The position numbers and the translations under genes were made by a program. The notes under the pieces are model-generated. The model saw nothing but the letters and a program-made list of their open reading frames with translations, searched no databases and was not told the origin of the DNA. DNA of 64,000 bases, from positions 85,520 to 149,519 of the forward strand of contig JBAZWC010000002.1 of NCBI GenBank assembly GCA_041660565.1, in the 5' to 3' direction. Of the stretch, positions 5,072 through 20,314 are shown one piece after another. The DNA is from Patescibacteria group bacterium (GTDB lineage: Bacteria > Patescibacteriota > UBA1384 > CAJBMM01). Each line of letters opens with the position of its first letter. The first letter of the stretch is position 1.

Positions 5072-5820
5072 GTTTTTTCAACCTTAATACTTCGAGTAAT
5101 TGAACGTAACTTCCCCGTTCTGGATTCTGCGGTGATGATGATGGTGTGAATACCCACTTCGCCCGCGTTAACTTCTTGCGCAAAATTGCCGTTTTCGTCC
5201 ACCGGAATCACTTGGCTACCCACCTTAACCGTTACTCCAGGCTCGGTTTTTCCCGATACCGTAAAGGTGCGAGAACTAACAACCGCTTGTTCAGACGGGC
5301 TGGAGATTGAAACCATTGGCACACCACTAAAAAAGTAAACTTGCGTGGCCAAATACCCAACAATCGCAATGACAGCCAGCGATATCACCGAAACCCAAAT
5401 CAATTTTGGGGTAATGGCAAATCGACTCAGCCGCAGGTTAGATTTATACGATAGGTTTGACAACGACGCTTGATTAGCCACACCGTACTCTTTTTGGAAC
5501 TGAGATAGTAGTTTAGTCGGATTAAGTTTCAAAAAACTGGCGTAATTCTGCAAAAATCCGGAAACATAAACCGAGTTAGGTAGCTGATAATACTTGGCGT
5601 TCTCTAGTGCTTCCAAATATTTAGCACGGATTAAAGTGCGCCGTTCGGCTTCTAACAGATCAATACCCATTTTTAAGCGCGCACGACGCAATTTTTCGCC
5701 CACAGTCAGCGGCACCTCAACAGATTTAGTTTTTTTACGTTTTGAAGCATTTTTTTTACTTAAAACAGCGTCTGAAGACGGTAGTTTAGGTAAAATTGAG
5801 GCGGATTTTACGGTTGTCAT
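5059..5820 (-). CDS. RodZ-like cytoskeleton protein (XRE-type HTH + TM segment + C-terminal domain)
   Basis: 253 aa. HTH LTVGEKLRRARLKMGIDLLEAERRTLIRAKYLEALE, one TM helix (LIWVSVISLAVIAIVGYL), beta-rich C-terminus. Confidence 0.65.
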   Translation of the reverse strand: MTTVKSASILPKLPSSDAVLSKKNASKRKKTKSVEVPLTVGEKLRRARLKMGIDLLEAERRTLIRAKYLEALENAKYYQLPNSVYVSGFLQNYASFLKLNPTKLLSQFQKEYGVANQASLSNLSYKSNLRLSRFAITPKLIWVSVISLAVIAIVGYLATQVYFFSGVPMVSISSPSEQAVVSSRTFTVSGKTEPGVTVKVGSQVIPVDENGNFAQEVNAGEVGIHTIIITAESRTGKLRSITRSIKVEKTINN

Positions 5821-5873
5821 TTGCCCCTATCATAACGCAACGGAGGCAAAAAACAAGAGGACGCATTTTCCCT

Positions 5874-5910
5874 GTCATTCCCGCGAAGGCGGGAATCCAG
5901 TCTATAAAAT
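5874..5910 (+). repeat. R1-related hairpin repeat copy c (TGTCATTCCCGCGAAGGCGGGAATCCAGTCTATAAAATAA)
   Basis: Same TGTCATTCC...GGAAT...CTATA(A) frame with ATTCCC-N8-GGGAAT stem. Followed at 5925-5960 by nested palindrome TCCCCGA..CCGCCAGCTGGCGG..TCGGGGA. Confidence 0.7.
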
Positions 5911-6142
5911 AATTTTCTTGCTGGATCCCCGAATATTCCGCCAGCTGGCGGAGTCGGGGATAACAAGGGGTTCAGTCACTCCGAGACTAACTCAGAGAGT
6001 GGGCTGTTCGTGTTAGCCCCCGGTTTCCGAAGCAGAGCGAGGTACCGCCTCTACAATGCTCGTGATACATTCCTCCATCTTCCATTCTCTCTATCCTCTA
6101 TCTTCTGATTTGTGTTACTATATTAGTGTACAAGGAGGGCTA

Positions 6143-8293
6143 TTGCCTCGACATAAACGTCGACAAACCGGCCCGCGTTTTTGGCAACGCAAAAAAGATC
6201 GCGGCAAAGGTTATCAATTTGATTTCGGCATGAAAGAAGAGACACGTCGCGAAACCGTGGCGATTGTCAGTTTAGTGTTATTCCTTATATATATGTTGGC
6301 AATCTTTGGTTACGCCGGTCATTTTGGCAACTTTGTCTTAACTCAAACGCGCATTTTAATTGGTTTGTTGGCCTATTTGTTGCCATTTATCTTTTTGACC
6401 GTTGTCGCCAGCATTGTAAACCCCAAAATGTTTGAAATTCGCCTGTCCACCGTGGTTGGCATTATCTTATTCTTTTTCAGTTTTGGCGGATTATTGCAGA
6501 TGCTATTAAATAATGACAACCCGGTTAGCTTAGCTTATTCCGGTAGCGGTGGCGGCTTAGCGGGATATTTTTCAGTCTATATTTTGTCATCAGTAGTAGG
6601 CAGTATTGCCACTTTCTTGATTTTATTTGCGGTGATGTTACTTTCGGTCTCAATGTCGCTTAATACATCGATTCTAAAGCTATTTGCATCTTTCTTTAAC
6701 AACGAAGAAGACGACCGCCGCATCACCGTAAACGAGGGCGGCAACAAAGTTTCGGTCTTTACCACAGTCAAAAAAGGCTTTTCCGGGTTTAGATTTGGCA
6801 AAAACAAAGACTTGCCGTCTAAGGCACCGGTGTTAGAGGTAAAACCAATTGGTATGCCTAAGTCTGGTGGTGATGGAGTTTGGAGTCCCCCGCCAATGGA
6901 TTTGCTGGAAATTCCCGAAAATAACAAAGCTAATCCGGGCAATATTCAAAAGAATGTGGAAGTGATAGAAAAAACGCTGCGAGAATTTAGCATTGACGTT
7001 ACAATGCAAGACGTTAACATTGGGCCAACGGTAACGCAGTACACGTTCAAACCAACCGAAGGGGTAAAGCTGGCCAACATTACCGCCCGCAGCAACGATT
7101 TGGCGTTAGCGCTTGCAGCCAAAAGTTTGCGCATGGAAGCACCAATTCCGGGGCAATCGGCGGTTGGAGTGGAAATTCCAAACAAGCAAACCGCGCGGGT
7201 TACGCTGCGTGAGCTGCTGGAATCAAAAGAATATCAATCTAGCAAAGGTAAACTAACTATCCCTCTTGGAAGAGATGTTGCCGGCACCCCAATGGTAATT
7301 GACCTAGAAAAAATGCCTCACTTACTCATTGCCGGCGCTACCGGCTCTGGAAAATCAGTCGCCATTAACTCTATTATTATTAGTTATATAATGAATAACG
7401 CCCCGGCCGATTTGAGATTACTATTGGTTGATCCGAAACGGGTTGAACTAACCGGCTACAACGGCATCCCGCATTTGTCCACCCCGGTGATTACCGAACC
7501 GGAAAAGACCGTCAATGCCTTAAAATGGGCAGTGAGCGAGATGGAAAATCGATATCGATTATTTGCCGATTTAGGCGCGCGCAACTTAGCGGCATACAAT
7601 GAAAAACCGGGCCCATTAGGCAAGTTGCCACATATCGTCATTATCATCGACGAGTTAGCAGATTTAATGGCAGTATCGGCCAATGACGTTGAATCATCAA
7701 TCGTTCGCCTAGCCCAGATGGCCCGCGCCATCGGTATTCATTTAATCGTAGCGACACAGCGCCCAAGCGTAGATGTAATCACCGGATTAATTAAGGCCAA
7801 CATTCCCTCCCGCATCGCCTTTACTGTGGCCAGCCAGGTTGACTCGCGCACCATTTTAGACGTTGGCGGCGCTGAAAAACTACTTGGACTTGGTGATATG
7901 TTATACATCGGCGGAGATATTACCAAACCAAAACGTATTCAGGGCTGTTTTGTGAGTGATAAAGAGATCAATAGCATTACCAACTTCTTGAAAAAAGACC
8001 AGTTTGTGCAATATGATGAGTCTATCACCGAATACCACTCTACCGGCGCATCTGTTGCCGGCAGCGGTAACGGCGTATCCGAGGATGATTTATATAATGA
8101 TGCGGTGTCGGTGGTAGTTCAGGCCGGAAAAGCCTCGGCATCACTATTGCAAAGACGAATGCGCATTGGTTACGCACGTGCTGCCAGATTACTTGATCTG
8201 CTTGAGGCAGAGGGCGTCATTGGCCCACCGGATGGCGCAAGACCGAGGGACGTGCTGGTTTCACCAACCGAATTGCATACAGAGGACAGATAA
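6143..8293 (+). CDS. ftsK: DNA translocase FtsK/SpoIIIE
   Basis: N-terminal TM helices, then the motor domain with Walker A GATGSGKS and Walker B IVIIIDELADLM, and a C-terminal gamma wHTH (LLQRRMRIGYARAARLLDLLEAEGVIG). Start moved to in-frame TTG 6143 with RBS AAGGAGGG 5 nt upstream (track start 6056 lacks RBS). Confidence 0.9.
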   Translation: MPRHKRRQTGPRFWQRKKDRGKGYQFDFGMKEETRRETVAIVSLVLFLIYMLAIFGYAGHFGNFVLTQTRILIGLLAYLLPFIFLTVVASIVNPKMFEIRLSTVVGIILFFFSFGGLLQMLLNNDNPVSLAYSGSGGGLAGYFSVYILSSVVGSIATFLILFAVMLLSVSMSLNTSILKLFASFFNNEEDDRRITVNEGGNKVSVFTTVKKGFSGFRFGKNKDLPSKAPVLEVKPIGMPKSGGDGVWSPPPMDLLEIPENNKANPGNIQKNVEVIEKTLREFSIDVTMQDVNIGPTVTQYTFKPTEGVKLANITARSNDLALALAAKSLRMEAPIPGQSAVGVEIPNKQTARVTLRELLESKEYQSSKGKLTIPLGRDVAGTPMVIDLEKMPHLLIAGATGSGKSVAINSIIISYIMNNAPADLRLLLVDPKRVELTGYNGIPHLSTPVITEPEKTVNALKWAVSEMENRYRLFADLGARNLAAYNEKPGPLGKLPHIVIIIDELADLMAVSANDVESSIVRLAQMARAIGIHLIVATQRPSVDVITGLIKANIPSRIAFTVASQVDSRTILDVGGAEKLLGLGDMLYIGGDITKPKRIQGCFVSDKEINSITNFLKKDQFVQYDESITEYHSTGASVAGSGNGVSEDDLYNDAVSVVVQAGKASASLLQRRMRIGYARAARLLDLLEAEGVIGPPDGARPRDVLVSPTELHTEDR

Positions 8294-8327
8294 TAGAAAT
8301 TTCAAATTAATTTATTATGGAGGTAGC

Positions 8328-8651
8328 ATGAGTCACCACGACGACGAGCCGATAATCCCAATTGCTAGCGAGGAAGATCAATCTTCTTCACAGAGGGCAA
8401 AATTAGAGATTTTACATAAAACAACCACCGATAGAATTGTTGAATTGCGTACCGCCGAAGACGCGATTATGCAAGAGATCGAAAAGGGCGTTGCCGGTCA
8501 TCTTGGAGACGATAAAATTAGTGAGTTAAGATCTAAACAATCCGAGATTCATACCGAAACCGAACAGCTATCGGTAAAATTAACCAAAATTGAGTTCGAC
8601 CTTGAACAACTAAAGCAACAAGAGCCAAAAACTGAAAATTCGAAGCACTAA
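8328..8651 (+). CDS. Hypothetical coiled-coil protein
   Basis: ATG at 8328 with GGAGG 5 nt upstream, about 107 aa. The track ORF 8166..8651 overlaps the ftsK 3' end and is probably over-extended. Confidence 0.55.
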   Translation: MSHHDDEPIIPIASEEDQSSSQRAKLEILHKTTTDRIVELRTAEDAIMQEIEKGVAGHLGDDKISELRSKQSEIHTETEQLSVKLTKIEFDLEQLKQQEPKTENSKH

Positions 8652-8805
8652 ACTCGAAGCACGAAACAAATTCAGAAATATAAATTAAAAAAACCATAGT
8701 ACAAGCTTTAGCTTGCTTTCAAATTTGTGCATAAACACGCTAAAGCGTGGGCCACGTTTTTTGTTTTTTTTCGTATTTCGAAATTCGGATTTCGTGCTTA
8801 TGGTT
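8640..8805. repeat. R3 AT-rich inverted-repeat element (AAGCACTAAA ... TTTCGTGCTT) including a terminator-like hairpin
   Basis: tcgaagcactaaactcgaagcacgaaa at the left end and ttcggatttcgtgctta at the right end. Internal CACGCTAAAGCGTG hairpin plus T-run (8738-8778). Related copies at 27660-27815 and 36368-36480. Confidence 0.6.
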
Positions 8806-9314
8806 TACTTGTCACTATTCGCCACATGCGCTCGACTGTGGCGGATTAGATCTATGACCGAATCAGGCGAAGAAACGCCGTGTAAAATCACTGTGCGTTC
8901 GCTAGTCTCGCTTTCTAACGTTATTGTGCCATAGTTCAATAACTGCCCTATTATCCCAGCATGACCCTCTACTCTGGATAAATCATGCAAACTGATGTAT
9001 TTTTTTTGGTGAGTAATAAAGCCCTCAATCACCTCAATAGTTGATTCAGTCAAAATATAATATGTGCTGTACCAATCCATTAAAATAATAAACGCAATAA
9101 TGCAAATACAAAACACAATTACCAATATTACTAGTCCAATTGCACCATAAGATAAATCTAAGCCATTACTAATATTCAAAAAAACGCCAATTAGCCCTAA
9201 ACCAACCAAAAAGAACACCGCCATTGGCCCAACCAAAAACCAGCGCGATTTATGCACCTTAAAAATTTGCATTGGTTTGTCCGAAGTAGGTAAGTTGTCT
9301 TCCATAGCTTGCAT
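8805..9314 (-). CDS. Membrane protein with bacterial PH (bPH_2, YdbS/YdbT-like) domain
   Basis: 169 aa. Two TM helices after the FKVHKSRWFLVGP motif, then an ESTIEV…GTITLESETSERTVILHGVSSP PH-like fold. Confidence 0.6.
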   Translation of the reverse strand: MQAMEDNLPTSDKPMQIFKVHKSRWFLVGPMAVFFLVGLGLIGVFLNISNGLDLSYGAIGLVILVIVFCICIIAFIILMDWYSTYYILTESTIEVIEGFITHQKKYISLHDLSRVEGHAGIIGQLLNYGTITLESETSERTVILHGVSSPDSVIDLIRHSRAHVANSDK

Positions 9315-9333
9315 TATAACACACTTTTCTCGT

Positions 9334-9425
9334 TGTCATTCCGGCGCTATGAGTATGTCGATCCGAGTACTCTGGCCTCCGGCTCTACAAGCCGATAGGC
9401 TCGGAGAGAGAAATCTAATAGAATA
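9334..9425 (+). repeat. R1-related long hairpin repeat copy d
   Basis: TGTCATTCCGGCGC...extended imperfect palindrome (GAGTATGTCGATCCGAGTACTC; GGCTC..GAGCC)...GAGAGAGAAATCTAATAGAATA. Same start and end frame as other R1 copies. Confidence 0.6.
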
Positions 9426-9435
9426 TCACATGAAT

Positions 9436-9560
9436 AATTTTAAATTCTAAAGCATGAAACTTGCGAGCTCGGCTCGCACAGTTACGAAATTGCTGAAGCA
9501 ATTATAAATTTTAAAAAGGTTCCTTATTTAGTCATTTAAAATTGGCAACCATTCATTTGA
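9436..9560 (+). repeat. R2 composite AT-rich interspersed repeat, copy 1 (both modules)
   Basis: Contains module GCATGAAACTTGCGAGCTCGGCTCGCACAGTTACGAAATTGCTGAAGCAATT and module AAGGTTCCTTATTTAGTCATTTAAAATTGGCAACCATTCATTTGA. Both reappear (inverted) at 45561-45745. Confidence 0.75.
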
Positions 9561-9642
9561 TAATCCCGAGCGTTCCGCGAGTGATTTCGATGCTAAGCAT
9601 CTAATTAAAAATTAAAAAATTTATATTTCACTTTCACGGATT

Positions 9643-10182
9643 GTGAAGTTTTGCTTGATCTACTATACTAATTCTATGCCACCTAATCCGCAAGTTATCA
9701 CCACCACACGTGCTACAGCCGTACCGATGCTCTCATCTGAAACGGAGATTTTTCGCGTACATAAAAGTTACTTTTTCCTAATTGCCCCGATTATTTTTGT
9801 CTCCCTGGTTGGAATAGCACTGATTATCGCCATAAACGTGCTCTCAAATCAGATCCCAACAAACTTAATTAACTACTTACGTATTGGCATTATTGCGATG
9901 ATCGTCTTTATTGATGCTTTAATTTGGTTTGATTGGCTGACTACTATCTATACCTTAACCAATCGAAGAATACAGTACCGTTTTGGTGTTATTGGCGAAC
10001 AAACAAAAACTATTGCCCTAGATCAGATCACCGACAACAAGGTGGTTATCGGTATTTTTGGACGCATTTTTAACTATGGCGATGTGGTAATAGATGCCGC
10101 CCATATTAATAGCACTATTTCATTCAAAGGAATCGGCTCTGCTGAAAGCCGAAAAGATCAGATTGACAATGCAAAAGGGTAA
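9643..10182 (+). CDS. Membrane protein with bacterial PH (bPH_2) domain, divergent paralog of 8805..9314
   Basis: 179 aa. FRVHKSYFFLIAP motif, two TM helices, C-terminal PH-like region. Start may be internal (MPPNPQ). Confidence 0.6.
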   Translation: MKFCLIYYTNSMPPNPQVITTTRATAVPMLSSETEIFRVHKSYFFLIAPIIFVSLVGIALIIAINVLSNQIPTNLINYLRIGIIAMIVFIDALIWFDWLTTIYTLTNRRIQYRFGVIGEQTKTIALDQITDNKVVIGIFGRIFNYGDVVIDAAHINSTISFKGIGSAESRKDQIDNAKG

Positions 10183-10240
10183 ATTTTTAGGGCCGGCCGC
10201 GTAACAACGCAACCGACCCTACCTCCCCCTCGTCAAGTCA

Positions 10241-10339
10241 GACCCTCCTTAGGTCTTTGATATAGTCTCGAATCTCCGCCACTAGGACGATAACCAACGC
10301 GGGCAGAAACTCGAACCACACTCCGAGAATCTTCATCGT
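10241..10339 (-). CDS. Small (32-aa) single-TM membrane peptide, island B
   Basis: MKILGVWFEFLPALVIVLVAEIRDYIKDLRRV, with perfect RBS GAGGAGGG 7 nt upstream of ATG. Below the 60-aa cutoff of the ORF track. Immediately downstream of the 167-aa membrane protein, same strand. Confidence 0.45.
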
Positions 10340-10435
10340 GCTGCCCTCCTCAATCCTGAGAAAGACTACCGCCGAAGTGGGTGATGATGACCCACATCCC
10401 GATCACCCACTCCAGGGCTGCACGGAGCACCGATA

Positions 10436-10939
10436 TCATCTTGCCATCCTCCTTCTGACCTCTACCCTTCCCGGGTGACGAGGTCGCGGAGACATCCGAG
10501 CACGACCACCCTCGGTTGTGATCAGTCGGAGAGGGCGGTATTCCTGTCGTCGGCGGGCGCGCCTGACCTTGACGATCAGATACAGCCCCACCATGCCAAC
10601 CGCAACAGCGTAAAAGCGGTTGATGTTGAGCCAGTCGGTGATCTGTATTGTGCCCAGATCCTCGAAGGCTGTATTGTACAGCCAGATGGACGCCGGGCGA
10701 ATCGCCCATACCCACGCGGCCCAAAGCGAGCCGCAGCAGATGGCGATGATCCCACCCCAAACGGTGGAGTTAATCATCGCCCAGCGGTTGTCCGACAACC
10801 ACTGGCGGATCGAATCGCGGCAGATGTACGCCGACGCAATCGCCGAAGCGATTACCATCGCCGCGAGCCACATCACGGGGGAGTCTTGCCCCCACATCGC
10901 ACGATAAAACGCGTGCGACATGTTGTAATCGTCGTTCAT
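10436..10939 (-). CDS. Hypothetical integral membrane protein with Arg-rich C-terminal tail (GC-rich island B)
   Basis: 167 aa, 3-4 predicted TM helices, RBS GGAAGG upstream. GC-rich codon usage. No recognisable family. Confidence 0.5.
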   Translation of the reverse strand: MNDDYNMSHAFYRAMWGQDSPVMWLAAMVIASAIASAYICRDSIRQWLSDNRWAMINSTVWGGIIAICCGSLWAAWVWAIRPASIWLYNTAFEDLGTIQITDWLNINRFYAVAVGMVGLYLIVKVRRARRRQEYRPLRLITTEGGRARMSPRPRHPGRVEVRRRMAR

Positions 10940-11070
10940 GTCCGTTACCTTCCTCCCGCTTCATCGCGAGAAAAAATGAGACGAAACTGTGTTGTTCAAG
11001 AGCAATCTCAGCTACTTACAGCTCAGCATTATTACTTATATTATACACCCTACGTGTGTGTTTGTCAACC

Positions 11071-13197
11071 CTAAACCTCTATCACTACCGGTACCACCAT
11101 CGGGCGGCGCTGGGTTTTAGTATACAGAAATTCGCCCAGTTTTTCCCGAATATCGTTTTTGAATAAGTTTGCATCTAGCGCACGAGTCTCGGTATGTCTG
11201 GAAAAGTGCTTTTTCACTTCGGCTCGGGCAGCATGCACCAAATCTTCATTTTCACGCATATAAATGAATCCACGTGAAATGATATCGGGCGATGTTACCA
11301 TCTTGCCGGTGTTGTGATCTAGCGTAACAATTACCACAAAGATACCGTCTTCGGCCATCACGCGACGATCACGCAACACAATATTACCCACGTCACCGAT
11401 ACCTAAACCATCTACCATTACGTAACCGGCAGGCACACGCTCTTCGCTAACTCGTCCCACACCGCCGGAGAACTCTAGTACCTGACCATTATCACAGATC
11501 AGTACGTTTTCGGCCGGAATGCCCAAACTTTGCCCCAGTTGCCCGTGCATCACCAATTTATGGCGTTCGCCATGAATTGGCACCAAATGTTTTGGTTGCA
11601 CTAGCGAGAGCATTAGTTTTAAGTCTTCTTGGTAGGCGTGGCCGGAACTATGGATGTCAATCATCTTGTTATAAATAACTTTAGCACCCTGTCTAAGCAG
11701 GTTATCCATGACAGATGAGATTGATTTCTCGTTACCCGGAATTGGTGATGTGGCAAGCACAATCGTATCACCTTTTTTGACCCGTACTTGACGATGTTCA
11801 CCGGTTGAAATACGGTACAATCCCGACATTTCTTCGCCCTGTGCGCCGGTTGAGATAATACAAATCTTGTCATCTGGGTATTTACCGATGTCTCTAATAT
11901 CAATCAGCGTATCCGCTGGCAATTTGATTGCGTCAATCGATAGCGCGGCGTCCACATTATCCACCATACTACGTCCAACCAGCGCTACTTTGCGTCCGGT
12001 TTTGGCCGAAGCGTTTAGCACTTGCTGAATACGTGAGATAAGCGAGGCAAACATTGCTACCATAATGCGCCCGTTGGTGTGATTTTCAAAAATATCTACC
12101 AAGTTTTTTTCGATTTCGCGTTCGGAAATTGAGTGACCTTGTTTATCAATGTTAGTCGATTCCGAAAACAACGCCAACGGCTGAGTAGCCGATAGTTGAG
12201 CGATACGACGCAAGTCGGTTGGTCGCCCGTCGGATGGAGTATGATCTAACTTCCAGTCGGTACAGTACATTAACATACCTTCTGGGGTAAAGACCGCTAG
12301 ACCCATTGCGTCTGGAATAGAGTGCGCCAAGCGGAATGATTCCACTTTGAACACGCCGAATTGCAACACGTCAACGCCAATTTGAATAACGTTAACCGCC
12401 ACTTTACCAACCAAACCAAACTCTTCCAGTCGTTTTTCCACTAGTTTTGCGGTTAGAGGTGAGGTAAATATCGGCGGATTACCCAGTTTGCCAATCAAAT
12501 AAGGCACGGCACCAATGTGATCCAAGTGACCGTGAGTAATTACTACGCCGCGAATTTTATCTTTGCGTTCTTCTAAGTACGAGACATCCGGGATGACATA
12601 GTCGATACCCAACATCGCCTCGTCTGGGAACATCAAACCCATATCAATAATCATGATGTCATTACCATATTCGATGGCGGTCATATTTTTACCGATTTCT
12701 TCCACACCACCCAACGGGATAACGCGCAATTTTGGTGTGGCGGTCTGGCTGGACATTGGCTGAGTTGGAACTGCAGCGTGTCCGCTATCGCCGTTATGAA
12801 TTAAAGCTTTACCGGTAAAGAAGTCATCGATGCTTTTTTTCTCACGTCGGTTACGCGTATTTCGACGGGCAGGACGACTGGTTCTGGTGTCATCAGCTTT
12901 ATGAGCCGGTGTTTGAGTTGGGCGGGTTGTAGTTGGACGTTGAATGTTAGTTCTTTCTGGAGCACGATACTCCGAAACCGGCTGCCGCGAAATTGCTGCA
13001 ACCATGTCTGTGGCTGGCTTTGGCATCTGGCCATTACCGCCTTTGGTTAAATTTGATAATACTGATTCCGCTGACGGAAATTTTGAGGCCGGTTTTTGGG
13101 CTTCCTCGGATTGGCGTTTGATTCTTTCGATATCAAATGCCGGCTGGCTACCTTGTGCAGCCATAGGTTGATTGTTGTTTGGTGTTTCTTCCACCAT
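11071..13197 (-). CDS. rnj: Ribonuclease J (metallo-beta-lactamase/beta-CASP RNase) with ~190-aa low-complexity N-terminal extension
   Basis: HGHLDHIGAVPYL motif, beta-CASP and C-terminal domain. Start chosen at ATG 13197 (RBS GAAAGGAAC) rather than track start 13233. Confidence 0.9.
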   Translation of the reverse strand: MVEETPNNNQPMAAQGSQPAFDIERIKRQSEEAQKPASKFPSAESVLSNLTKGGNGQMPKPATDMVAAISRQPVSEYRAPERTNIQRPTTTRPTQTPAHKADDTRTSRPARRNTRNRREKKSIDDFFTGKALIHNGDSGHAAVPTQPMSSQTATPKLRVIPLGGVEEIGKNMTAIEYGNDIMIIDMGLMFPDEAMLGIDYVIPDVSYLEERKDKIRGVVITHGHLDHIGAVPYLIGKLGNPPIFTSPLTAKLVEKRLEEFGLVGKVAVNVIQIGVDVLQFGVFKVESFRLAHSIPDAMGLAVFTPEGMLMYCTDWKLDHTPSDGRPTDLRRIAQLSATQPLALFSESTNIDKQGHSISEREIEKNLVDIFENHTNGRIMVAMFASLISRIQQVLNASAKTGRKVALVGRSMVDNVDAALSIDAIKLPADTLIDIRDIGKYPDDKICIISTGAQGEEMSGLYRISTGEHRQVRVKKGDTIVLATSPIPGNEKSISSVMDNLLRQGAKVIYNKMIDIHSSGHAYQEDLKLMLSLVQPKHLVPIHGERHKLVMHGQLGQSLGIPAENVLICDNGQVLEFSGGVGRVSEERVPAGYVMVDGLGIGDVGNIVLRDRRVMAEDGIFVVIVTLDHNTGKMVTSPDIISRGFIYMRENEDLVHAARAEVKKHFSRHTETRALDANLFKNDIREKLGEFLYTKTQRRPMVVPVVIEV

Positions 13198-13238
13198 GTT
13201 CCTTTCTGTATTGAAACAAATAGTTCGTTTCAAAATTG

Positions 13239-13826
13239 TTATTTTTTGTCGATTAATTGATCGATTTTTTTAATTATTGCTGGGATGCGGCCAAAATCGT
13301 CCATTAGCGTCTGGCGCAAACCACCGTTATGCAGCGCCGCAGCCGGATGATAAAGGGGTAAAATGTATAAATCGCCACGATGCTTGGGTTGGCCATGAAC
13401 TTCGGATATCTTAAAACCGGGTAAAAAATAGTTCATTGAATGCCTGCCTAAACAGACGATTAACTTTGGATTGATAAATTTGATTTGTGCTTCTAAATAG
13501 GGCAAACATGCCGCTTTTTCTTCGTCTTCCGGATCACGATTTTCCGGTGGACGGCATTTGACAATGTTGGTAATAAAAACTTGGGTGCGATCTAAATTGA
13601 TACTGTTAAGCATTTCGTCTAAAAATTTGCCGGCGTTTCCCACAAACGGACGCCCCAACTTGTCTTCGTTAAATCCCGGGCCTTCGCCCACAAACAGAAT
13701 TTCTGATTGAGGATTTCCTTCACCCGGAACCGAATTTAATCGAGTGCGATGCAAGGGGCAACGCTCACAGACGCGGACTTGATTTGCCACATCGGACAGA
13801 TCATTAAACCCTAGTACATCGGGCAC
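13239..13826 (-). CDS. Uracil-DNA glycosylase, family 4
   Basis: 195 aa. CERCPLH…, GEGPGFNEDKLGRPFVGNAGKFLDEML and HPAAAL motifs typical of family-4 UDG. Confidence 0.85.
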   Translation of the reverse strand: MPDVLGFNDLSDVANQVRVCERCPLHRTRLNSVPGEGNPQSEILFVGEGPGFNEDKLGRPFVGNAGKFLDEMLNSINLDRTQVFITNIVKCRPPENRDPEDEEKAACLPYLEAQIKFINPKLIVCLGRHSMNYFLPGFKISEVHGQPKHRGDLYILPLYHPAAALHNGGLRQTLMDDFGRIPAIIKKIDQLIDKK

Positions 13827-13995
13827 AAGACTCCTTGAAATAGGTTAGTTGATGAAAAACATATTTTTAGTACAAAATATTTACGTTCTAAGTGTAGCAC
13901 ATAGGATTAATATTGTCAATAGCAAAGTGTTGCGTCAGAATCGAAAAAGTGATATAACATAGTTAGCTACATCATCCCGATGGAGGAGAAACGCG

Positions 13996-14268
13996 ATGAC
14001 GGATCAGGTAATTCATCACGCTGTAACGCCCTCAGAAGAGGAGCCGATCACGCTGACCAAGCGCGAGACCGAGATCCTTACGCTGGTAATCGAGGGCCGG
14101 TCAAGCCAGGAAGTAGCCGACATGCTGTACGTCTCCAAGCGGACAATCGACTTCCACTTGGCGAACATCTACGAAAAGTTGCAGGTGAGCAACCGCGTGC
14201 AGGCCTTCCGGCGAGCAGCTCGCCTAGGCTTGATCCCGTTCGACCCGCACTTCGGAGAATCCGAGTGA
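13996..14268 (+). CDS. LuxR/GerE-type HTH solo transcriptional regulator (GC-rich island C)
   Basis: 90 aa. LTKRETEILTLVIEGRSSQEVADMLYVSKRTIDFHLANIYEKLQVSNRVQA is a canonical GerE/LuxR C-terminal HTH. RBS GGAGGAG upstream. Promoter-like TTGCGT-17-TATAAC at about 13935-13965. Confidence 0.8.
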   Translation: MTDQVIHHAVTPSEEEPITLTKRETEILTLVIEGRSSQEVADMLYVSKRTIDFHLANIYEKLQVSNRVQAFRRAARLGLIPFDPHFGESE

Positions 14269-14370
14269 CGACCCAGCCCAGTTTACGCGCCCGCGACAAA
14301 CCACCGTCATCGGGCGCCTTCTTTTTGCAGACACTTGACCCCGTCAGAGGTAATCGTCTCTAACGGGGTT

Positions 14371-14400
14371 GACATTACTCACCTAATCGCGTATTATAAT
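14371..14400 (+). promoter_or_regulatory. Near-consensus sigma70 promoter (TTGACA-17-TATTAT/TATAAT)
   Basis: ttgacattactcacctaatcgcgtattataat has a perfect -35 hexamer, 17-bp spacer and -10 TATTAT overlapping TATAAT. No ORF with a plausible RBS follows. Confidence 0.6.
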
Positions 14401-14404
14401 GGAT

Positions 14405-14690
14405 GTGCGAGGAATGGAGCACGCGCACAGTCGCACTGTTCGAGTTGCCACCCCGCTTAGCGGGGTAATCGGGACGTCAGCGGGACGCCCAGCGTCCTTA
14501 GCGTTCCACCATTTCGCCTACCTCGTCGGCCGGGGGGGAGAGGCAGGCGAAACGCCGGGTTGACGCGGGACTGTTTGGTACCCCCTTCCGGTCCCGCTCC
14601 CCGTCGCAATCATACCGCTCCTTTTCGGGAGCGAACGTCTCACCCGGGTGCCAACAGTGTTGTTGGTGCCCGGTTTTCTTTTATCTAAAA
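14405..14690 (+). ncRNA. Candidate structured non-coding RNA (~285 nt, GC-rich), class unknown
   Basis: Lies between the consensus promoter and an intrinsic terminator. Multiple strong local hairpins (CCCCGC-UUAG-GCGGGG, GGACGC-CCAG-GCGUCC, GCGGGAC...GUCCCGC, GCUCC-UUUUC-GGGAGC). No convincing ORF. Next gene is on the opposite strand. Confidence 0.4.
14648..14690 (+). terminator. Rho-independent terminator of the candidate ncRNA
   Basis: CCCGGGUGCCAACA-GUG-UUGUUGGUGCCCGG stem followed by UUUUCUUUUAU. Confidence 0.6.
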
Positions 14691-14710
14691 TTCCAATTTA
14701 TCCAATTTGC

Positions 14711-15598
14711 CTAATTAAGCCAATTTGAACTGTTTTTTATCACTCCGGCCGTCGTAACAGTACCACTTTTTATTCTGACCAAAATGTATTTCAACGCTAG
14801 CCAAAACCCCCAAAACTGCTCCCACCGCCGATGGACTAAAGCGTTAACTACGTGAAACGGCATCCAAAATAAATGCACCAGCAACATGGGCAAGTTGTCT
14901 ATCGCCCGCCAGGTAAAAAGATACGCACCCTTCCAGCCATGGGCTTTTTTTATTAATGGCGTTGCCACCATCGAAGTAGTTGATTCATGATGGTGAATAC
15001 AGCGGCTTTTTGGCACAAATATCGATTTCCAACCTTTTTTCCAAGCCCGAAAACACAAATCGGCATCTTCCCAATAAAACGGCCGAAAAATTGGTGAAAA
15101 TCCACCTAAATCTAAAAACTTTTGCCGATTAAAAGCGCCGGCGCCACCACTAACGTAGAAAGTGTTTATCGGATCGCTAAATTTACGGTCAGGATACATC
15201 TCAAACACCGGCCGATGGCGCAACAAGCCCCGTTTCCACTCTGCCACCGTTCCCCCATCGTCGTATTCATGATCACCAGCAACGACACGCTGATACGCGC
15301 CAACCGCAAAAACTTTGTCATCCTCTAATTCTTTATATAACGGACTGAAAAAATCACCCTCGGTTTGAATATCGGTATTCAGCAACACCACAATGTCTGT
15401 TTTGGTCATTTTCACCGCGCGGTTATAACCATCGCCAAAGCCGTAATTCTGATCAAATGGCACCCATTTGGCGATTTTATGATCTTTAACCACCTGCGCA
15501 CTGTTATCTTTTGAGCCGTTATCAACCACAATCACTTCAGTTGAAATGCTCGCCAGACTAGCCGATTTTATCACCGACGCCAAATTCCGGCGCAGCAA
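14711..15598 (-). CDS. Glycosyltransferase family 2
   Basis: 295 aa. VIVVDNGSKDNS (DxD-context) and GGAGAFNRQKF motifs of GT-A fold GT2 enzymes. Confidence 0.8.
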   Translation of the reverse strand: MLRRNLASVIKSASLASISTEVIVVDNGSKDNSAQVVKDHKIAKWVPFDQNYGFGDGYNRAVKMTKTDIVVLLNTDIQTEGDFFSPLYKELEDDKVFAVGAYQRVVAGDHEYDDGGTVAEWKRGLLRHRPVFEMYPDRKFSDPINTFYVSGGAGAFNRQKFLDLGGFSPIFRPFYWEDADLCFRAWKKGWKSIFVPKSRCIHHHESTTSMVATPLIKKAHGWKGAYLFTWRAIDNLPMLLVHLFWMPFHVVNALVHRRWEQFWGFWLALKYILVRIKSGTVTTAGVIKNSSNWLN

Positions 15599-15746
15599 CC
15601 CCTCGCCATTGTAGTTTAAAATAATTACAGAAGCAGTTTTTATATCGTTTCTTTCTGCACTCAGATTACCAAAATCTGATCCGTTATGATAGGTTGGACT
15701 AGCCCTGAGGCGATATTTGTTGTATAACTAGACCAGGAGATAACAA

Positions 15747-16820
15747 ATGTCACTAAATATTGGGATTGTTGGACTGCCAAACGTGGGAAAATCGACGTTG
15801 TTTAATGCGCTGACCAAATCCGGCCAAGCCGCGGCAGAGAACTACCCATTTTGCACCATCGAGCCAAACGTGGGCATTGTGCCGGTGCCAGATGATCGCC
15901 TGCAAAAACTGGCAGATGTAGTTAAAACCAACAAACTAATCCCCGCCACCGTGCAATTTGTCGATATTGCCGGGCTGGTGGCCGGCGCGCACAAGGGTGA
16001 GGGTTTGGGCAATCAGTTTTTAGCCCACATTCGCGAAACCGATGCTATCGCCATGGTGGTGCGCTGTTTTACCGATGAAAATGTGATCCACGTGACGGGC
16101 ACTGTTGACCCCAAATCTGACATCGAAACCATCAAACTAGAACTAATCTTAGCCGACCTGCAAACGGTGACAAAAATGCGCGGCGTGGCAGAAACCAAAG
16201 CCAAAGGCCACGACAAAGAGGCAATGGTTCTGTTTACCGCGTTAAATAAAGTTGAACACACCTTAAATCAAGAACAACTTGCGAGCCTTGCCGATCTTGG
16301 CGATGACGAGCGAAGCGCTATCAATTCGATTCAATTATTAACCAACAAACCGTTTCTTTACATTGGCAATGTTAGCGAAGCAGATGTGAACAAAGATCCG
16401 AGTGATTTTGGCCTACCAAGTGACGCAATTTTGATCTCGGCCAAAGTGGAATCGGAGTTAGTATCGCTTACTGACAGCGAACAAGCGGAATACCTAGCTG
16501 CACTTGGACTAAATGAATCTGGTTTAACCCGATTAATCCATCGCGCCTACAAAACTTTGGGCTTGCAATACTTTTTCACCGCTGGGCCAAAGGAAGTGCG
16601 GGCATGGACTATTCACCAAGGCTCAACCGCGCCAATTGCCGCCGGCGTTATTCATACCGATTTTATTAAAGGATTTATTCGCGCCGAAGTAATGTCTTAT
16701 GATGATTTAATTACTCTGGGATCTGAACTAAAAGTAAAAGAAGCCGGCAAATTGCGCATTGAGGGCAAGGATTACGTGATGCGCGAAGGCGACGTGGTAC
16801 ATTTTAGGGTAACGAGCTAG
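15747..16820 (+). CDS. ychF: Ribosome-binding ATPase YchF (Obg-family GTPase)
   Basis: 357 aa. G1 GIVGLPNVGKSTLFNALT, FVDIAGLV, C-terminal TGS domain. Confidence 0.92.
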   Translation: MSLNIGIVGLPNVGKSTLFNALTKSGQAAAENYPFCTIEPNVGIVPVPDDRLQKLADVVKTNKLIPATVQFVDIAGLVAGAHKGEGLGNQFLAHIRETDAIAMVVRCFTDENVIHVTGTVDPKSDIETIKLELILADLQTVTKMRGVAETKAKGHDKEAMVLFTALNKVEHTLNQEQLASLADLGDDERSAINSIQLLTNKPFLYIGNVSEADVNKDPSDFGLPSDAILISAKVESELVSLTDSEQAEYLAALGLNESGLTRLIHRAYKTLGLQYFFTAGPKEVRAWTIHQGSTAPIAAGVIHTDFIKGFIRAEVMSYDDLITLGSELKVKEAGKLRIEGKDYVMREGDVVHFRVTS

Positions 16821-16827
16821 TATTTAT

Positions 16828-16860
16828 TGTCATTCCGGATTTAATCCGGAATCTATATAA
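16828..16860 (+). repeat. R1 hairpin repeat copy e (TGTCATTCCGGATTTAATCCGGAATCTATATAA)
   Basis: Core identical to copy a (which starts GCCATTCC). 8 nt after ychF stop, at the left edge of GC-rich island D. Confidence 0.85.
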
Positions 16861-17026
16861 TTAAATTCTTTTTATAGCATGAACTCCGGGTCATGCCCTT
16901 AAGTGACAGCTGCTGACGTTTGACATATCAAATAATAAGCGTAAAGTAGTTTTTAATGCCTCAATCGCTCGAATGAGGAGCACTTTTCACATACATGTCG
17001 GCTCGGTAGGCCAAAAGGAGGCCAGC

Positions 17027-17254
17027 GTGGCGATACAGGAAGACGGAATCCCCAACGACCAAGACTGTATCCCCGCACCCGGGGAGAAAGCCGTGCGTCT
17101 GCTACTCGAGGACAATGCCAACCTACGCAGGGTGAACGAGGAGTTACGCGCGGCCAATGCAGACCTTCGCAGCAAGCTGATGGCAGCAACAGGACGGATT
17201 ACTGCCCTGACGCGCCGGACAGATGTTCAACCCGCCACCCCAACGCGCACGTGA
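17027..17254 (+). CDS. Small coiled-coil protein (island D, gene 1)
   Basis: Track ORF 16973..17254. A more likely start is GTG 17027 after RBS AAAGGAGG. Heptad-rich LEDNANLRRVNEELRAANADLRSKL. Upstream promoter-like TTGACA-16-TAAAGT at about 16920-16950. Confidence 0.45.
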   Translation: MAIQEDGIPNDQDCIPAPGEKAVRLLLEDNANLRRVNEELRAANADLRSKLMAATGRITALTRRTDVQPATPTRT

Positions 17255-17266
17255 AGGAGAGAACGC

Positions 17267-18004
17267 ATGTGCCCACCGCATTCCGTTGAGGAAGCGTCGA
17301 CTGACCCATACGACACAATCGACCTTCTTGAACAAGACATCGAGAGTCGCGACCGAACCATTGCTGATCTGCGCCGAGAGAACGCCCAGCTGTTGACCCG
17401 CGTCAACGAGCTTGGTCAGCAGAAAGCCACAGCTGAGACGCTAGCTGAGGATCTCCAGCGAGACATAGCGCTGTTGCGCCGTGAGATCCAGCGCTTGCAA
17501 TGTCAGGACACAACCACGCAGCCTGAAGATGCACCGCCAGCAACGCCATGGTTTGCGAACATCAGTTTCAGCACGAACGCATGGGAAGTGCTTGCCGTGC
17601 GTGCACCGGCGGTTGCCCGCGAGTTCAGCGAGAACTACGTCTCCACAGAGCATCTGTTGCTCGCGATACTCCGAGTTCCCGATTGTACTGCGGCGAAGTT
17701 TCTGGACTATCGCGGTGTCACCGAGCGCATCATTGCCGAGGTAAACCGGCAAGCGATGCGGGGAGATGATCGAACAACGGCTGAACCGCAACTAACCCCG
17801 CGCTGCAAGCGATGTGTCGAATTAGCGATCAACGAAGCTGCGGGCGACACTTTCGGCACCGGATACATGCTGCTCGGTTTGATCCAAGACGGTGAAGGTC
17901 TGGCGGCTCGTGTCTTGACCAAGATCTGCGGCGTGACACTCGAATCGGCTCGACGGGAGCTTCAAGCGCTGCGCCAACCCAATCCCACCCCAACGCCTGC
18001 GTAA
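17267..18004 (+). CDS. Coiled-coil protein with C-terminal double Clp_N (Clp amino-terminal R) domain (island D, gene 2)
   Basis: 245 aa. N-terminal coiled coil (DLRRENAQLLTRVNELGQQKATAETLAEDLQRDIALLRREIQRLQ), then two Clp_N-like repeats (FSTNAWEVLAVRAPAVAREFSENYVSTEHLLLAILR ... ELAINEAAGDTFGTGYMLLGLIQDGEGLAARVL). RBS GAAGGAGA. Confidence 0.6.
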   Translation: MCPPHSVEEASTDPYDTIDLLEQDIESRDRTIADLRRENAQLLTRVNELGQQKATAETLAEDLQRDIALLRREIQRLQCQDTTTQPEDAPPATPWFANISFSTNAWEVLAVRAPAVAREFSENYVSTEHLLLAILRVPDCTAAKFLDYRGVTERIIAEVNRQAMRGDDRTTAEPQLTPRCKRCVELAINEAAGDTFGTGYMLLGLIQDGEGLAARVLTKICGVTLESARRELQALRQPNPTPTPA

Positions 18005-18017
18005 AGGAAAGAGCGCC

Positions 18018-18326
18018 ATGCCGACAGACGATAGCCCCGAAGCGAGGATCGAGAGTCAGCGAACGTACATCCAGCAACTCGAGAGAGAGAAGGCTCAGCT
18101 GTCGCAAGAGCTCGCCGACGTCAGGCAGGAGATCCAGACCACCAGGAACTCGCTGCGGGAAGCACAGGAAACGCTGGCGGGGGTCGCGCCGGAAAAGCTC
18201 GAGCTTCTCGGACAGCTGCGAACCGAGCAGACGCGAAACCGCCAACTGGAGGACCGATTGGGTCTGCTCCGGTCGGTTAGCGACCAACTTTCCGCCCTAT
18301 CCGCGGAATACCCTCCGATCGAGTAG
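18018..18326 (+). CDS. Small coiled-coil protein (island D, gene 3)
   Basis: 102 aa, continuous heptads (IQQLEREKAQLSQELADVRQEIQTTRNSLREAQETL). RBS AAAGGAAAGAG. Confidence 0.5.
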   Translation: MPTDDSPEARIESQRTYIQQLEREKAQLSQELADVRQEIQTTRNSLREAQETLAGVAPEKLELLGQLRTEQTRNRQLEDRLGLLRSVSDQLSALSAEYPPIE

Positions 18327-18329
18327 CCC

Positions 18330-18378
18330 ACTTGCCCCCATCCGCTTGCGGACATGGGGGCTTGCTTTTTTGAAAAAT
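18330..18378 (+). terminator. Rho-independent terminator closing island D
   Basis: CCCCCATCCGCTTGCGGACATGGGGG hairpin followed by CTTGCTTTTTT. Confidence 0.6.
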
Positions 18379-18478
18379 ATCTGTTAAATTAATAGTAATA
18401 TAAACCAACTTTTTCCCGCGGCTAATTTGCCTCGGGTCGGGAATGAAAAAATATCCCGAACCACAGAAAGGACATTAC

Positions 18479-19012
18479 GTGAAAACGTACGAAATTACCT
18501 ATATCGTTTCAGACACCGTTGCCGAAGACAAAGTTAGCAACGAAATGGCCGAAGTCTCTAAAGAGCTCGAACGCCTTGGTGGCGTCATTGTTAAAGAAGA
18601 ACCATGGGGCAAAAGACGTTTGGCATATCCAATTAAGCGAAGCCAGTTTGGTTATTATGTTACCTTGCAAAGTCATATAGAGAATAGCAAGGTTAAAGAA
18701 TTAGATCGATTTTTCAGACTTCACAGCACCATTTTGCGCCATCTAATTTTAGCCTCAATTCCGGAACCGGTTAAAGCAGCCGATGAGACCGAATTGGTTG
18801 AGTCGATTGAGAAACGGGTTGAAGCATCCAAAGAGGCCGCCAGCGAAATCGTTGCCACCGAAACCAAAACCGCTTCGAGTGAGGAAGAGAAGCCAAAAAC
18901 CACTCGCGTTAAAAAATCAGTCAAATCCAATGAATCAGAGAAAAAAGCTGAAAATGATGATGAGCGCCGCAAGCAGGTTGAAGAAAAATTAAGTGAGATA
19001 TTAAAAGACTAA
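18479..19012 (+). CDS. rpsF: 30S ribosomal protein S6 with acidic/Lys-rich C-terminal extension
   Basis: VKTYEITYIVSD… matches the S6 N-terminus. GTG start at 18479 after AAAGGA. Track ORF begins 18443. rpsF-ssb-rpsR synteny. Confidence 0.8.
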   Translation: MKTYEITYIVSDTVAEDKVSNEMAEVSKELERLGGVIVKEEPWGKRRLAYPIKRSQFGYYVTLQSHIENSKVKELDRFFRLHSTILRHLILASIPEPVKAADETELVESIEKRVEASKEAASEIVATETKTASSEEEKPKTTRVKKSVKSNESEKKAENDDERRKQVEEKLSEILKD

Positions 19013-19034
19013 TAAATCTCTTAAAGGAGAAAAT

Positions 19035-19514
19035 ATGTACAGTCTAAATCGTGCTCAAATACTGGGAAATTTGACTCGGGATCCGGAATTAAAATCTACC
19101 CCAAGCGGGCAAATGGTAACCTCGTTCAGCATTGCCACTAATCGCAGCTGGCAAAACCCGGATGGCACCCGCCAAGACGCCGTTGAATATCACGACATCG
19201 TGGCGTGGGGCAAATTGGCCGAAATTTCATCGCAAATTTTAGCCAAAGGCAAACAAGCGTATGTTGAAGGTCGCTTGCAAACTCGTAGCTGGGATAGCCA
19301 AGACGGTCAAAAACGACAAAAAACCGAGATTGTGGCCGAAAATATCATTGCTACCGGTTCAAGAGGCGAAAGAGACATTAAAATGTCTGACGACTCTGTG
19401 CAGTCATCCCCTAACGTTGGCAAACCAGAAAGAAAAGATAAAAAAGATGATGTAAAATCATCCGAATCTGCCAAAACAGATGAAGAAATTAACATCGATG
19501 ACATCCCATTTTAA
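19035..19514 (+). CDS. ssb: Single-stranded DNA-binding protein
   Basis: 159 aa. OB-fold N-terminus (LNRAQILGNLTRDPELKSTPSGQMVTSFSIATNRSWQ), acidic tail ending DDIPF. Confidence 0.9.
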   Translation: MYSLNRAQILGNLTRDPELKSTPSGQMVTSFSIATNRSWQNPDGTRQDAVEYHDIVAWGKLAEISSQILAKGKQAYVEGRLQTRSWDSQDGQKRQKTEIVAENIIATGSRGERDIKMSDDSVQSSPNVGKPERKDKKDDVKSSESAKTDEEINIDDIPF

Positions 19515-19529
19515 AGTAAAAGGAGCTTA

Positions 19530-19751
19530 ATGCCAAAACCATATTACACCAAAAAAGAATGTCTATTTTGCAAAAAGCGCATGAACAGCGTGGATTACAA
19601 AGACGTTTCGCTATTATCTAAATTTACTACCCATTGGGGTCGTATTGAAACCGCCAAGAAATCCGGTACTTGCCATAAGCACCAACGCTTGTTAGGCACT
19701 GCAATTAAACAAGCAAGACACTTGGCCTTGATTCCGTTTACCACGAAATAA
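19530..19751 (+). CDS. rpsR: 30S ribosomal protein S18
   Basis: 73 aa. CLFCKKRMNSVDYKDVSLLSKF… conserved S18 core. Confidence 0.9.
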   Translation: MPKPYYTKKECLFCKKRMNSVDYKDVSLLSKFTTHWGRIETAKKSGTCHKHQRLLGTAIKQARHLALIPFTTK

Positions 19752-19753
19752 TC

Positions 19754-20314
19754 ATGCTAAGTATTACCGATCTACGTAACGGCACATTGGTTGAAATTGA
19801 TGGCGATCCTCATATCGTGATCAACTATTCGCATCACAAAATGGGACGCGGTGGGGCTGTGGTTAAAACCAAACTTAAAAACCTCAAAACCGGCGCCACC
19901 TATGAGCGCTCTTTTCACGGTAACGACAAGTTAGATCAGGCTACACTGGACGAAAAACAGGCCAGTTTCTTGTATAAAGAAGGTAACAAATATCTATTTA
20001 TGGATTCAAGCACCTACGAACAGTTTGAGCTACCTGATTCGGTGATTGCAGACAGCATCCCATTTCTGGCTGAAGGCATTGAAGTTAAAGTGATGTTTTT
20101 TGATGGCTTACCAATTGCGCTAAACTTACCGATTAAAATGGAATTTAAAGTTACTCATACCGAGCCGGGCGTTAAAGGTGACACGGCGCAAGGTGGCACT
20201 AAACCAGCCACCATTGAAACCGGCGCTTCGATTATCGTACCGCTATTCGTCAATATAGGTGACGTAATTAGAGTGGACACACGAAACTCTAGCTACATCG
20301 AACGAGTTAAGTAA
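19754..20314 (+). CDS. efp: Elongation factor P
   Basis: 186 aa. HHKMGRGGAVVKTKLKNLKTG (KPGKG loop region), three OB domains. Confidence 0.92.
   Translation: MLSITDLRNGTLVEIDGDPHIVINYSHHKMGRGGAVVKTKLKNLKTGATYERSFHGNDKLDQATLDEKQASFLYKEGNKYLFMDSSTYEQFELPDSVIADSIPFLAEGIEVKVMFFDGLPIALNLPIKMEFKVTHTEPGVKGDTAQGGTKPATIETGASIIVPLFVNIGDVIRVDTRNSSYIERVK

Follow-up and report, generated by a model that had tools for sequence, protein, structure and literature searches.

The 64,000-nt stretch analysed here (the window; positions 85,520 to 149,519 of the 374-kb contig JBAZWC010000002.1, assembly GCA_041660565.1, which NCBI labels as a Patescibacteria group bacterium; an assembly of run SRR18595301 contains the same contig) carries, between the gene for a small GerE/LuxR-type regulator and a convergent glycosyltransferase gene, a GC-rich segment at window positions 14404-14683 that we tentatively interpret as a self-contained, lineage-specific and independently transcribed non-coding RNA gene, that is, a small RNA (sRNA) gene. 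This is the explanation that we put first, without claiming it firmly, and on the whole the segment appears to be a plausible lineage-specific sRNA unit that is unproven. The evidence for it is the combination expected of an independent sRNA unit, namely a sigma-70-type promoter with a suitable spacer, a Rho-independent terminator on the same strand, and the absence of a coding signal between them. A preliminary description of the same region, made by eye from the letters and their open reading frames (ORFs), had listed a novel sRNA among several candidate classes; as the best reading of the segment this proposal has survived, while a single genome and no covariation stand behind it. A real RNA at this position would join the very few sRNA genes that have been proposed for Patescibacteria (the candidate phyla radiation, CPR), whose regulatory RNAs are to our knowledge essentially uncharted, and it would mean that genomes as reduced as these acquire foreign non-coding cassettes and express them.

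Signals, coding potential and predicted fold of the candidate transcript

The promoter consists of a -35 hexamer TTGACA (14369-14374) and a -10 hexamer TATTAT (14392-14397), which together match 11 of the 12 consensus positions and lie 17 bp apart, the optimal spacer length, in a locally AT-rich patch; a second -10-like hexamer, TATAAT at 14395-14400, overlaps the first. Sites of this grade are rare within the 64-kb window, where four reach at least 11/12 of the sigma-70 consensus compared with 1.0 +/- 0.9 in Markov-simulated sequence. Promoters of the TTGACA type are apparently in use in the present genome, because the other strongest ones of the window directly precede real cassettes (described in the last section). 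At the other end, a terminator stem at 14644-14673, with 8 G-C pairs among its 13 bp, is followed by TTTTCTTTT. The whole element at 14644-14682 folds with -23.5 kcal/mol (z = -5.6, pair probability 0.98) and is the longest stem and strongest terminator-like site within positions 1-20000 of the window; its T-run is found on the + strand only, and the unit is therefore read in this direction. Taking the start as 6-8 nt past the -10 element and the end as the U-tract, we arrive at a transcript of roughly 280 nt (14404 to 14683, both approximate), in agreement with the ~285 nt of the preliminary description. The sigma70 promoter with its 17-bp spacer and the clean intrinsic terminator with a 13-bp stem, both of which had been noted there, hold as well, with a small shift of the former to 14369-14397 (to 14400 when TATAAT is counted) and a correction of the latter to 14644-14682.

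Several lines of evidence speak to the coding potential of the region. GC content in 100-nt windows is 0.64-0.69 across 14404-14683, and among all 150-nt windows GC is at its maximum here (0.687; mean 0.458, standard deviation 0.07). By codon phase, GC is flat (0.64/0.69/0.56) and without codon periodicity, whereas the foreign protein genes of the window have GC at the third codon position (GC3) of 0.61-0.76 and at the second (GC2) of 0.37-0.52. No ORF longer than 54 aa exists on either strand of the transcript region; the 54-aa ORF starts at an ATG (14399) within the -10 region, and an internal ATG at 14414, opening a 49-aa peptide (MEHAHSRTVRV...), has a GAGGA merely 1-2 nt upstream, which bears out the earlier remark that there is no credible ORF and that the sole ATG has a tight spacing to its ribosome-binding site (RBS). 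Gene calling on an independently assembled copy of the locus (L001) placed no gene in the transcript region, Pfam yielded no family for the translations of its two ORFs, and a concatenated six-frame, hence chimeric, query against 5.8 billion proteins returned nothing at E<=10. A six-frame tblastn search against all fetched loci, the donor-type neighbour pdxT among them, gave nothing below E = 0.47. From the short ORFs, the flat phase GC, the missing gene call on L001 and the lack of any Pfam or protein match, we conclude that, judged by sequence analysis, the region is non-coding. The possibility that it is left over from coding sequence of the donor was considered and rejected, given the null tblastn and protein queries and the missing codon periodicity.

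The predicted fold of the whole + strand RNA has a minimum free energy (MFE) of -133.4 kcal/mol (z = -4.3). Base-pair probabilities resolve it into six local hairpins, H1-H6, plus the terminator, and the MFE and maximum expected accuracy structures agree on the six. Folded jointly, H2 and H3 reach -33.3 kcal/mol (z = -4.95), while H4 folds with -20.3 kcal/mol (z = -2.65) and H5 with -26.9 kcal/mol (z = -2.4). The linkers between hairpins are 1-9 nt long, and no confident long-range helix was predicted in the RNA, the contacts between its 5' and 3' ends being scattered, 1-2 bp each, with probabilities of about 0.4. The earlier impression of a region packed with stable stem-loops agrees with this predicted fold, in which pair probabilities are 0.74-1.0 for H2-H6.

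Immediately upstream of the promoter lies an inverted repeat, ACCCCGTCAGAG-N8-CTCTAACGGGGT at 14337-14370, detected by repeat finding, with 12-nt arms that are 92% complementary and a last base that doubles as the initial T of the -35 hexamer. As RNA it would fold with -19.2 kcal/mol (z = -4.1), and it might serve as an operator or form a hairpin; no second copy was found in the window and none in 164 loci.

Based on these features, we surmise that RNA polymerase would start near 14404, that the nascent RNA would fold successively into the six GC-rich local hairpins, and that transcription would halt at the U-tract, giving a stable and abundant sRNA of about 280 nt. Its likeliest mode of action would be that of a trans-acting RNA, either regulatory or protein-binding, which might work through its few predicted unpaired segments, i.e. 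the 5' end with GAGGAAUGGAG, the C-rich loop of H5 and the linker at 14608-14615. In addition, a dimeric DNA-binding protein at the 12-bp-arm repeat abutting the -35 hexamer may modulate transcription, for which the adjacent GerE-type protein would be the obvious candidate, in formal analogy to GacA acting on rsmY/Z. The coordinates of the unit and of the features around it are collected in Table 1.

Table 1. Positions of the predicted RNA unit, its hairpins and the surrounding features in the window.
Feature	Position	Strand	Details
Sigma-70-type promoter, TTGACA-17-TATTAT	14369-14397	+	11/12 consensus
Predicted non-coding transcript, ~280 nt	14404-14683	+	GC 0.63; no codon periodicity; no Rfam or protein match
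Hairpin H1, weakest of the six	14419-14448	+	pair probability 0.56-0.81
Hairpin H2, 7 bp, loop UUA	14450-14466	+	pair probability 0.98
Hairpin H3, two stacked 7-bp helices, loop CCA	14471-14507	+	pair probability 0.96-0.98
Hairpin H4	14513-14551	+	pair probability 0.74-0.76; also found as repeat pair
Hairpin H5, 9-bp core plus extension, C-rich apical loop UACCC	14553-14606	+	core pair probability 0.92-1.0
Hairpin H6, 7 bp, loop UUUC	14616-14633	+	pair probability 0.97
Intrinsic terminator T2	14644-14682	+	13-bp stem, loop GUGU, then UUUUCUUUU
Inverted repeat	14337-14370		12-nt arms, abuts -35
Gene for 90-aa GerE/LuxR-type regulator, helix-turn-helix (HTH) only	13996-14268	+	Pfam PF00196, 5.5e-19, residues 19-73
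Intrinsic terminator T1 of the regulator gene	14287-14327	+	stem 14287-14317, then CTTCTTTTTG; -17.6 kcal/mol, z = -2.9
Convergent GT2 glycosyltransferase gene, downstream neighbour	14711-15598	-	Pfam
GC-rich islands	2341-3360, 10361-10930, 14131-14680, 17001-18370, 42101-43190, 60431-60850		150-nt GC >=0.60
Island promoters	11068-11040, 43288-43260, 60971-60943	-
Island promoter	16920-16947	+

Known RNA families and the search for relatives

Nowhere in the window did Rfam 15 report a family at gathering score, and when matches up to E<=10 were admitted for 13800-14800, chance hits to microRNA and long non-coding RNA families appeared alone, driven by H4. Matches to 6S, raiA, RNase P, tmRNA or SRP RNA were found neither at gathering score in the window nor at E<=10 in 13800-14800, and ARAGORN predicted 0 genes and no tmRNA. 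No Rfam family therefore explains the region, and the earlier failure to recognise RNase P, tmRNA or SRP RNA by eye was justified. The two named families that had been suggested fared less well. With 6S RNA and Ms1 the candidate shares its size class, an apparently strong promoter and a GC content above the genome level, yet it has no covariance-model match and is predicted as a string of six local hairpins instead of a rod with a central bubble, its closing stem being weak (about 0.4). In common with the raiA-motif RNA, the candidate would be structured, GC-rich and non-coding, with a length in the range of about 200-300 nt and a promoter and terminator to itself; conservation of the raiA motif is reported across more than 2,500 species (PMC11706538). 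The candidate, unlike that motif, has no Rfam match at any threshold, and no homologs of it were found.

CsrB, RsmY and RsmZ are sRNAs with which the candidate has in common an adjacent gene for a GerE-type HTH protein, a palindrome with 12-bp arms just upstream of the -35 hexamer, and an RNA made of a chain of hairpins. In the GacA/UvrY-controlled systems, the promoter of such a multi-hairpin sRNA is preceded by a palindrome to which a regulator with a GerE/LuxR-type HTH binds. The adjacent regulator, however, differs from GacA/UvrY in having no receiver domain, and the palindrome at 14337-14370 differs from what we take to be the GacA box. Besides, GGA motifs are not enriched in the candidate RNA (7 found where 4.4 +/- 2.0 would be expected; p = 0.15), four of them are buried in stable stems instead of being exposed in loops, and no CsrB/Rsm family of Rfam matches it. 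Because the GGA motifs are neither enriched nor mostly outside stems, we do not regard the candidate as CsrB/Rsm-like.

The candidate also resembles ordinary bacterial trans-acting sRNA genes, in which a sigma-70 promoter drives a non-coding RNA of 50-400 nt that ends at a Rho-independent terminator. Like these, the candidate stands alone between protein genes, has a consensus-like promoter, a 3' hairpin with a U-tract and no ORF, and is lineage-restricted; it differs from them in that no relatives were found in the other genomes searched. The candidate fits no known family and, as a stand-alone bacterial sRNA unit, is an ordinary kind of object. It also agrees with the rationale of GC-rich intergenic screens (Stav et al. 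2019 and later; PMC6429828, PMC8632094, PMC11109978). To enrich for structured non-coding RNAs, it is established practice to select intergenic regions that are long, GC-rich and free of ORFs in genomes of lower GC (PMC6429828), and the candidate is a region of this kind. These pipelines, however, demand homologs and covariation before a motif is named, and the candidate has neither; moreover, high GC in the present genome also marks horizontally acquired coding DNA.

A search for relatives was performed in 177 fetched loci (about 1 Mb in total), among them 160 regulator-homolog loci from genomes and metagenomes and 13 related-Patescibacteria loci. Its results, together with the behaviour of control sequences, weigh against the interpretation as an RNA gene. 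Neither nhmmer nor blastn nor a covariance model revealed a relative of the RNA in the 177 loci except for the copy in L001; the full 5861 nt of that contig are 100% identical to the window, which makes it uninformative for conservation. In phage and plasmid collections blastn gave no match to the RNA, and five exact-word scans of viral contigs returned chance 17- and 18-mer matches alone. The RNA is accordingly a single-genome occurrence in which no helix is backed by conservation or covariation, no homolog having been found, and no motif ties it to the GerE-type protein. The fold itself discriminates poorly: the minus strand gives a fold that is just as good (z = -5.0), the G-U pair counts of the two strands (10 and 7) fail to separate them, and the coding GC-rich island B (10561-10841), used as a control, reaches z-scores of -4.3 (+) and -5.8 (-). 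Since a coding island attains comparable values and the minus strand folds alike, the z-score was rejected as a proof of an RNA gene. High GC is not indicative of RNA here either, as the foreign coding islands of the window are GC-rich too, so that the emphasis which the preliminary description laid on GC-richness as a sign of RNA structure is confounded by foreign DNA in general. High GC and a low folding z-score are thus weak evidence for RNA in this window, and as a single-genome candidate without conservation the RNA is a weak candidate as it stands. Island B itself contains a plausible ORF with a Shine-Dalgarno sequence and a GC3 of 0.73, and is unusually structured for an mRNA.

Several more specific leads were followed and discarded. 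An origin from phages, plasmids or viruses was rejected on the null blastn result and the chance level of the exact-word matches. The best foreign hit of a covariance model built on H2-H5 scored 22.7 bits in locus L134, which we attribute to chance because it falls within coding sequence resembling ispD/ispF and does not include H4. A 17-nt inverted repeat at 13948-13964 and 14728-14744 (82% complementary) was considered as a pair of mobile-element ends and judged to be chance; it is AT-rich, with the right arm within the GT2 coding region. Pairing of the RNA with the RBS of the regulator gene, suggested by a repeat at 13979-13994 and 14540-14555 (81% identical), was rejected because the duplex would be heavily mismatched and much weaker than the intramolecular H4. 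An unrestricted target ranking with RNAduplex proved meaningless, as it allowed huge interior loops.

The adjacent regulator and the competing explanations

The protein encoded upstream is indeed a 90-aa, HTH-only GerE protein, as had been described, and the next gene downstream, for GT2, does lie on the opposite strand. Its designation as a 'LuxR solo' needs correction: the GerE HTH stands alone in it, but the autoinducer-binding domain is absent, and for this reason the protein, judged by its domain content, is not a solo in the quorum-sensing sense. Its best near-full-length NCBIfam match is PedR (NF052366; 55.5 bits, below the cut-off of 120, over profile positions 2-64 of 74), which it resembles as a small HTH-only regulator, yet by this score it is not a member of that family. 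PADLOC models matched the generic HTH domain alone, and assignment to a defence system was dismissed.

The closest relatives of the regulator, with 60-96% protein identity and among them Armatimonadota proteins with 77-96%, are encoded in metagenome-assembled genomes of Armatimonadota (Chthonomonadales and Fimbriimonadales) and in high-GC metagenome contigs, whereas the small GerE proteins of related Patescibacteria are merely 35-50% identical to it; in addition, the GC3 of its gene is 0.76, compared with 0.42-0.49 in the backbone genes UDG, GT2 and YchF. On these three grounds, the sequence comparison identifies the regulator gene as a horizontal acquisition from an Armatimonadota-like donor. 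T1 aligns with the regulator/pdxT intergenic terminator of loci L082, L110 and L054, and the similarity ends at about 14330, which by this alignment marks T1 as the end of the foreign regulator segment and indicates that the regulator arrived with its own terminator. In 22 regulator-homolog loci, the nearest relatives included, the next gene is a convergent pdxT, lying 70-130 nt away in the closest ones, and no comparable RNA was found downstream of the regulator in these closest relatives; a six-frame comparison detected no pdxT remnant in the segment from 14336 onward. Because pdxT follows at 70-130 nt in the relatives and homology stops at about 14330, the RNA segment, which begins a few bases past T1, lies outside the native context of the regulator.

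As to side observations on this protein family, the small GerE-type regulator is strongly conserved, with 60-96% identity across Armatimonadota orders. Its Armatimonadota homologs (L002-L161) have a conserved (A/G)TGGAA(T/C)(A/G) 40-70 nt upstream of their start codons, and many share a AGCAGGGAAAGGAGA ribosome-binding region. An operator motif common to the window and the Armatimonadota regulator genes was looked for and dismissed, since none of the upstream motifs conserved there is like the window palindrome. The GerE-only proteins of related Patescibacteria (59 and 71 aa; L167:1614-1793 and L169:32-247) are encoded directly after a cold-shock-domain gene.

The main rival to an sRNA gene, unlikely in our view but the most serious, is foreign DNA without a function: the segment would be a piece of GC-rich non-coding sequence that came in by the route of the other GC-rich islands, with a promoter on one side and a terminator on the other, and is perhaps transcribed without being selected as RNA. 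It would fit with a hotspot at which each relative examined has its own cargo, with the lack of a homolog in anything searched, and with a fold z-score no better than that of coding island B. The adjacent foreign regulator, with its GC3 of 0.76, has moreover not yet drifted to the lower GC of its host, and high GC can mean recent arrival instead of a constraint from structure. What this explanation accommodates badly is that a near-perfect promoter and the strongest terminator in 20 kb bracket exactly the ORF-free stretch, which is unlikely as an accident, and that the segment is not the downstream DNA of the donor, as the missing pdxT remnant and the end of homology at about 14330 indicate.

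An improbable alternative is a cis-acting cluster of insulators or terminators that halts read-through between the convergent regulator and GT2 genes, the promoter being incidental. The region does lie between convergent genes, three strong hairpin elements (T1, the inverted repeat and T2) stand in a row, and GT2 has no minus-strand terminator with a T-run of its own. However, T1 already terminates the regulator gene, the U-tract of T2 is on the + strand only and would not stop transcription from GT2, 280 nt and six hairpins far exceed what would be needed, and the 11/12 promoter is left unexplained.

Highly improbable, in our estimate, is that the GerE-type regulator, the palindrome at the -35 hexamer and the hairpin RNA belong together as a portable module, a regulator plus an sRNA, that would represent a new class. 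Such a module might have been assembled by the Patescibacteria cell or acquired from a GC-rich partner, possibly an Armatimonadota host, and might serve as an RNA-based addiction, defence or host-interaction element, the hotspot in relatives carrying toxin-antitoxin and defence-like cargo. The RNA was also considered as a conserved partner of the regulator and rejected, as neither nhmmer nor blastn found similarity outside the coding region in the 160 regulator-homolog loci. The regulatory link to the adjacent regulator, which had been raised in the preliminary description, is unsupported given the pdxT gene and the lack of a comparable RNA in the closest relatives, the repeat being unique in the window.

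We give very little credence to a gene for a small protein, be it the 49-aa peptide from ATG 14414 or the 54-aa form from ATG 14399: a GAGGA precedes one ATG, and promoter and terminator are arranged as in a monocistronic gene, but one start lies inside the -10 region, the other has its GAGGA at a distance of only 1-2 nt, GC at codon position 2 is about 0.6 with no GC3 excess, unlike in the other foreign genes, and gene caller, Pfam and protein searches were negative alike. Equally slight is the chance of a highly diverged housekeeping RNA (6S, RNase P or another RNA-polymerase-binding RNA) missed by the Rfam models, for which speak the strong promoter, the GC-richness relative to the genome, the length of about 280 nt and the poor representation of Patescibacteria among the sequences behind these models, and against which stand the purely chance matches at E<=10, the negative ARAGORN result, the missing end-to-end rod and central bubble with closing pairs at about 0.4, and a position in a variable cargo gap from which it is absent in the 8 related genomes read, unlike a housekeeping gene.

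GC-rich cassettes of the window and the gap in related genomes

The candidate sRNA unit lies in one of six GC-rich islands (150-nt GC of at least 0.60, compared with a mean of 0.46) that break the 45% GC Patescibacteria backbone. In the ORFs of the islands GC3 is 0.55-0.76, compared with 0.42-0.49 for genes of the backbone; this difference suggests that DNA was acquired horizontally more than once, from a single GC-rich donor or from several. The window's best matches to the sigma-70 promoter consensus are located directly upstream of GC-rich island genes, including a perfect 12/12 TTGACA-17-TATAAT that precedes an ORF for a 167-aa membrane protein (10436-10939, -), so that the islands resemble cassettes made of promoter, gene and terminator. 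In the 17-kb island, the protein with a Clp_N domain (17267-18004, +) is 47% identical over 103 aa to a Fimbriimonas (Armatimonadota) locus (L037:1-306), which had been included for an unrelated reason. With the regulator and the Clp_N protein, at least two cassettes have Armatimonadota affinity by sequence similarity, and this affinity may hint at the donor or the host of the present Patescibacteria lineage. Judged from these comparisons, the context appears more solid than the RNA, in that GC-rich, high-GC3 cassettes behind near-consensus TTGACA promoters have been inserted in a conserved Patescibacteria backbone; the regulator with its native terminator and the other GC-rich cassettes could thereby point to the donor or host of an uncultured lineage.

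The backbone was traced in relatives through UDG and YchF homologs with 65-74% identity, and its gene order was read in L162-L164 and L167-L176 and compared with 11071-19514 of the window. The order conserved in those related genomes in which both sides were read is RNase J <- UDG <- / -> YchF -> S6 -> SSB -> S18 -> EF-P, and the UDG/YchF and YchF/S6 gaps hold cargo that differs per genome, such as MazE/PemK pairs, Phd/Fic, NYN and patatin genes and small ORFs. Neither the regulator nor an RNA-like sequence was found in the gaps of the relatives, the UDG/YchF gap having been read in 8 related genomes. In this comparison, the UDG/YchF gap is a cargo hotspot and the RNA appears lineage-specific. 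In one relative (L172), the same gap contains at 6289-6460 an unrelated TTGACA promoter followed by about 150 nt and a terminator, which could be another small RNA, with an adjoining 57-aa ORF that has its own terminator (6470-6915). In the same genome, which has 41% GC, an ORF-poor stretch of 62% GC is located downstream of RNase J at 3070-3313.

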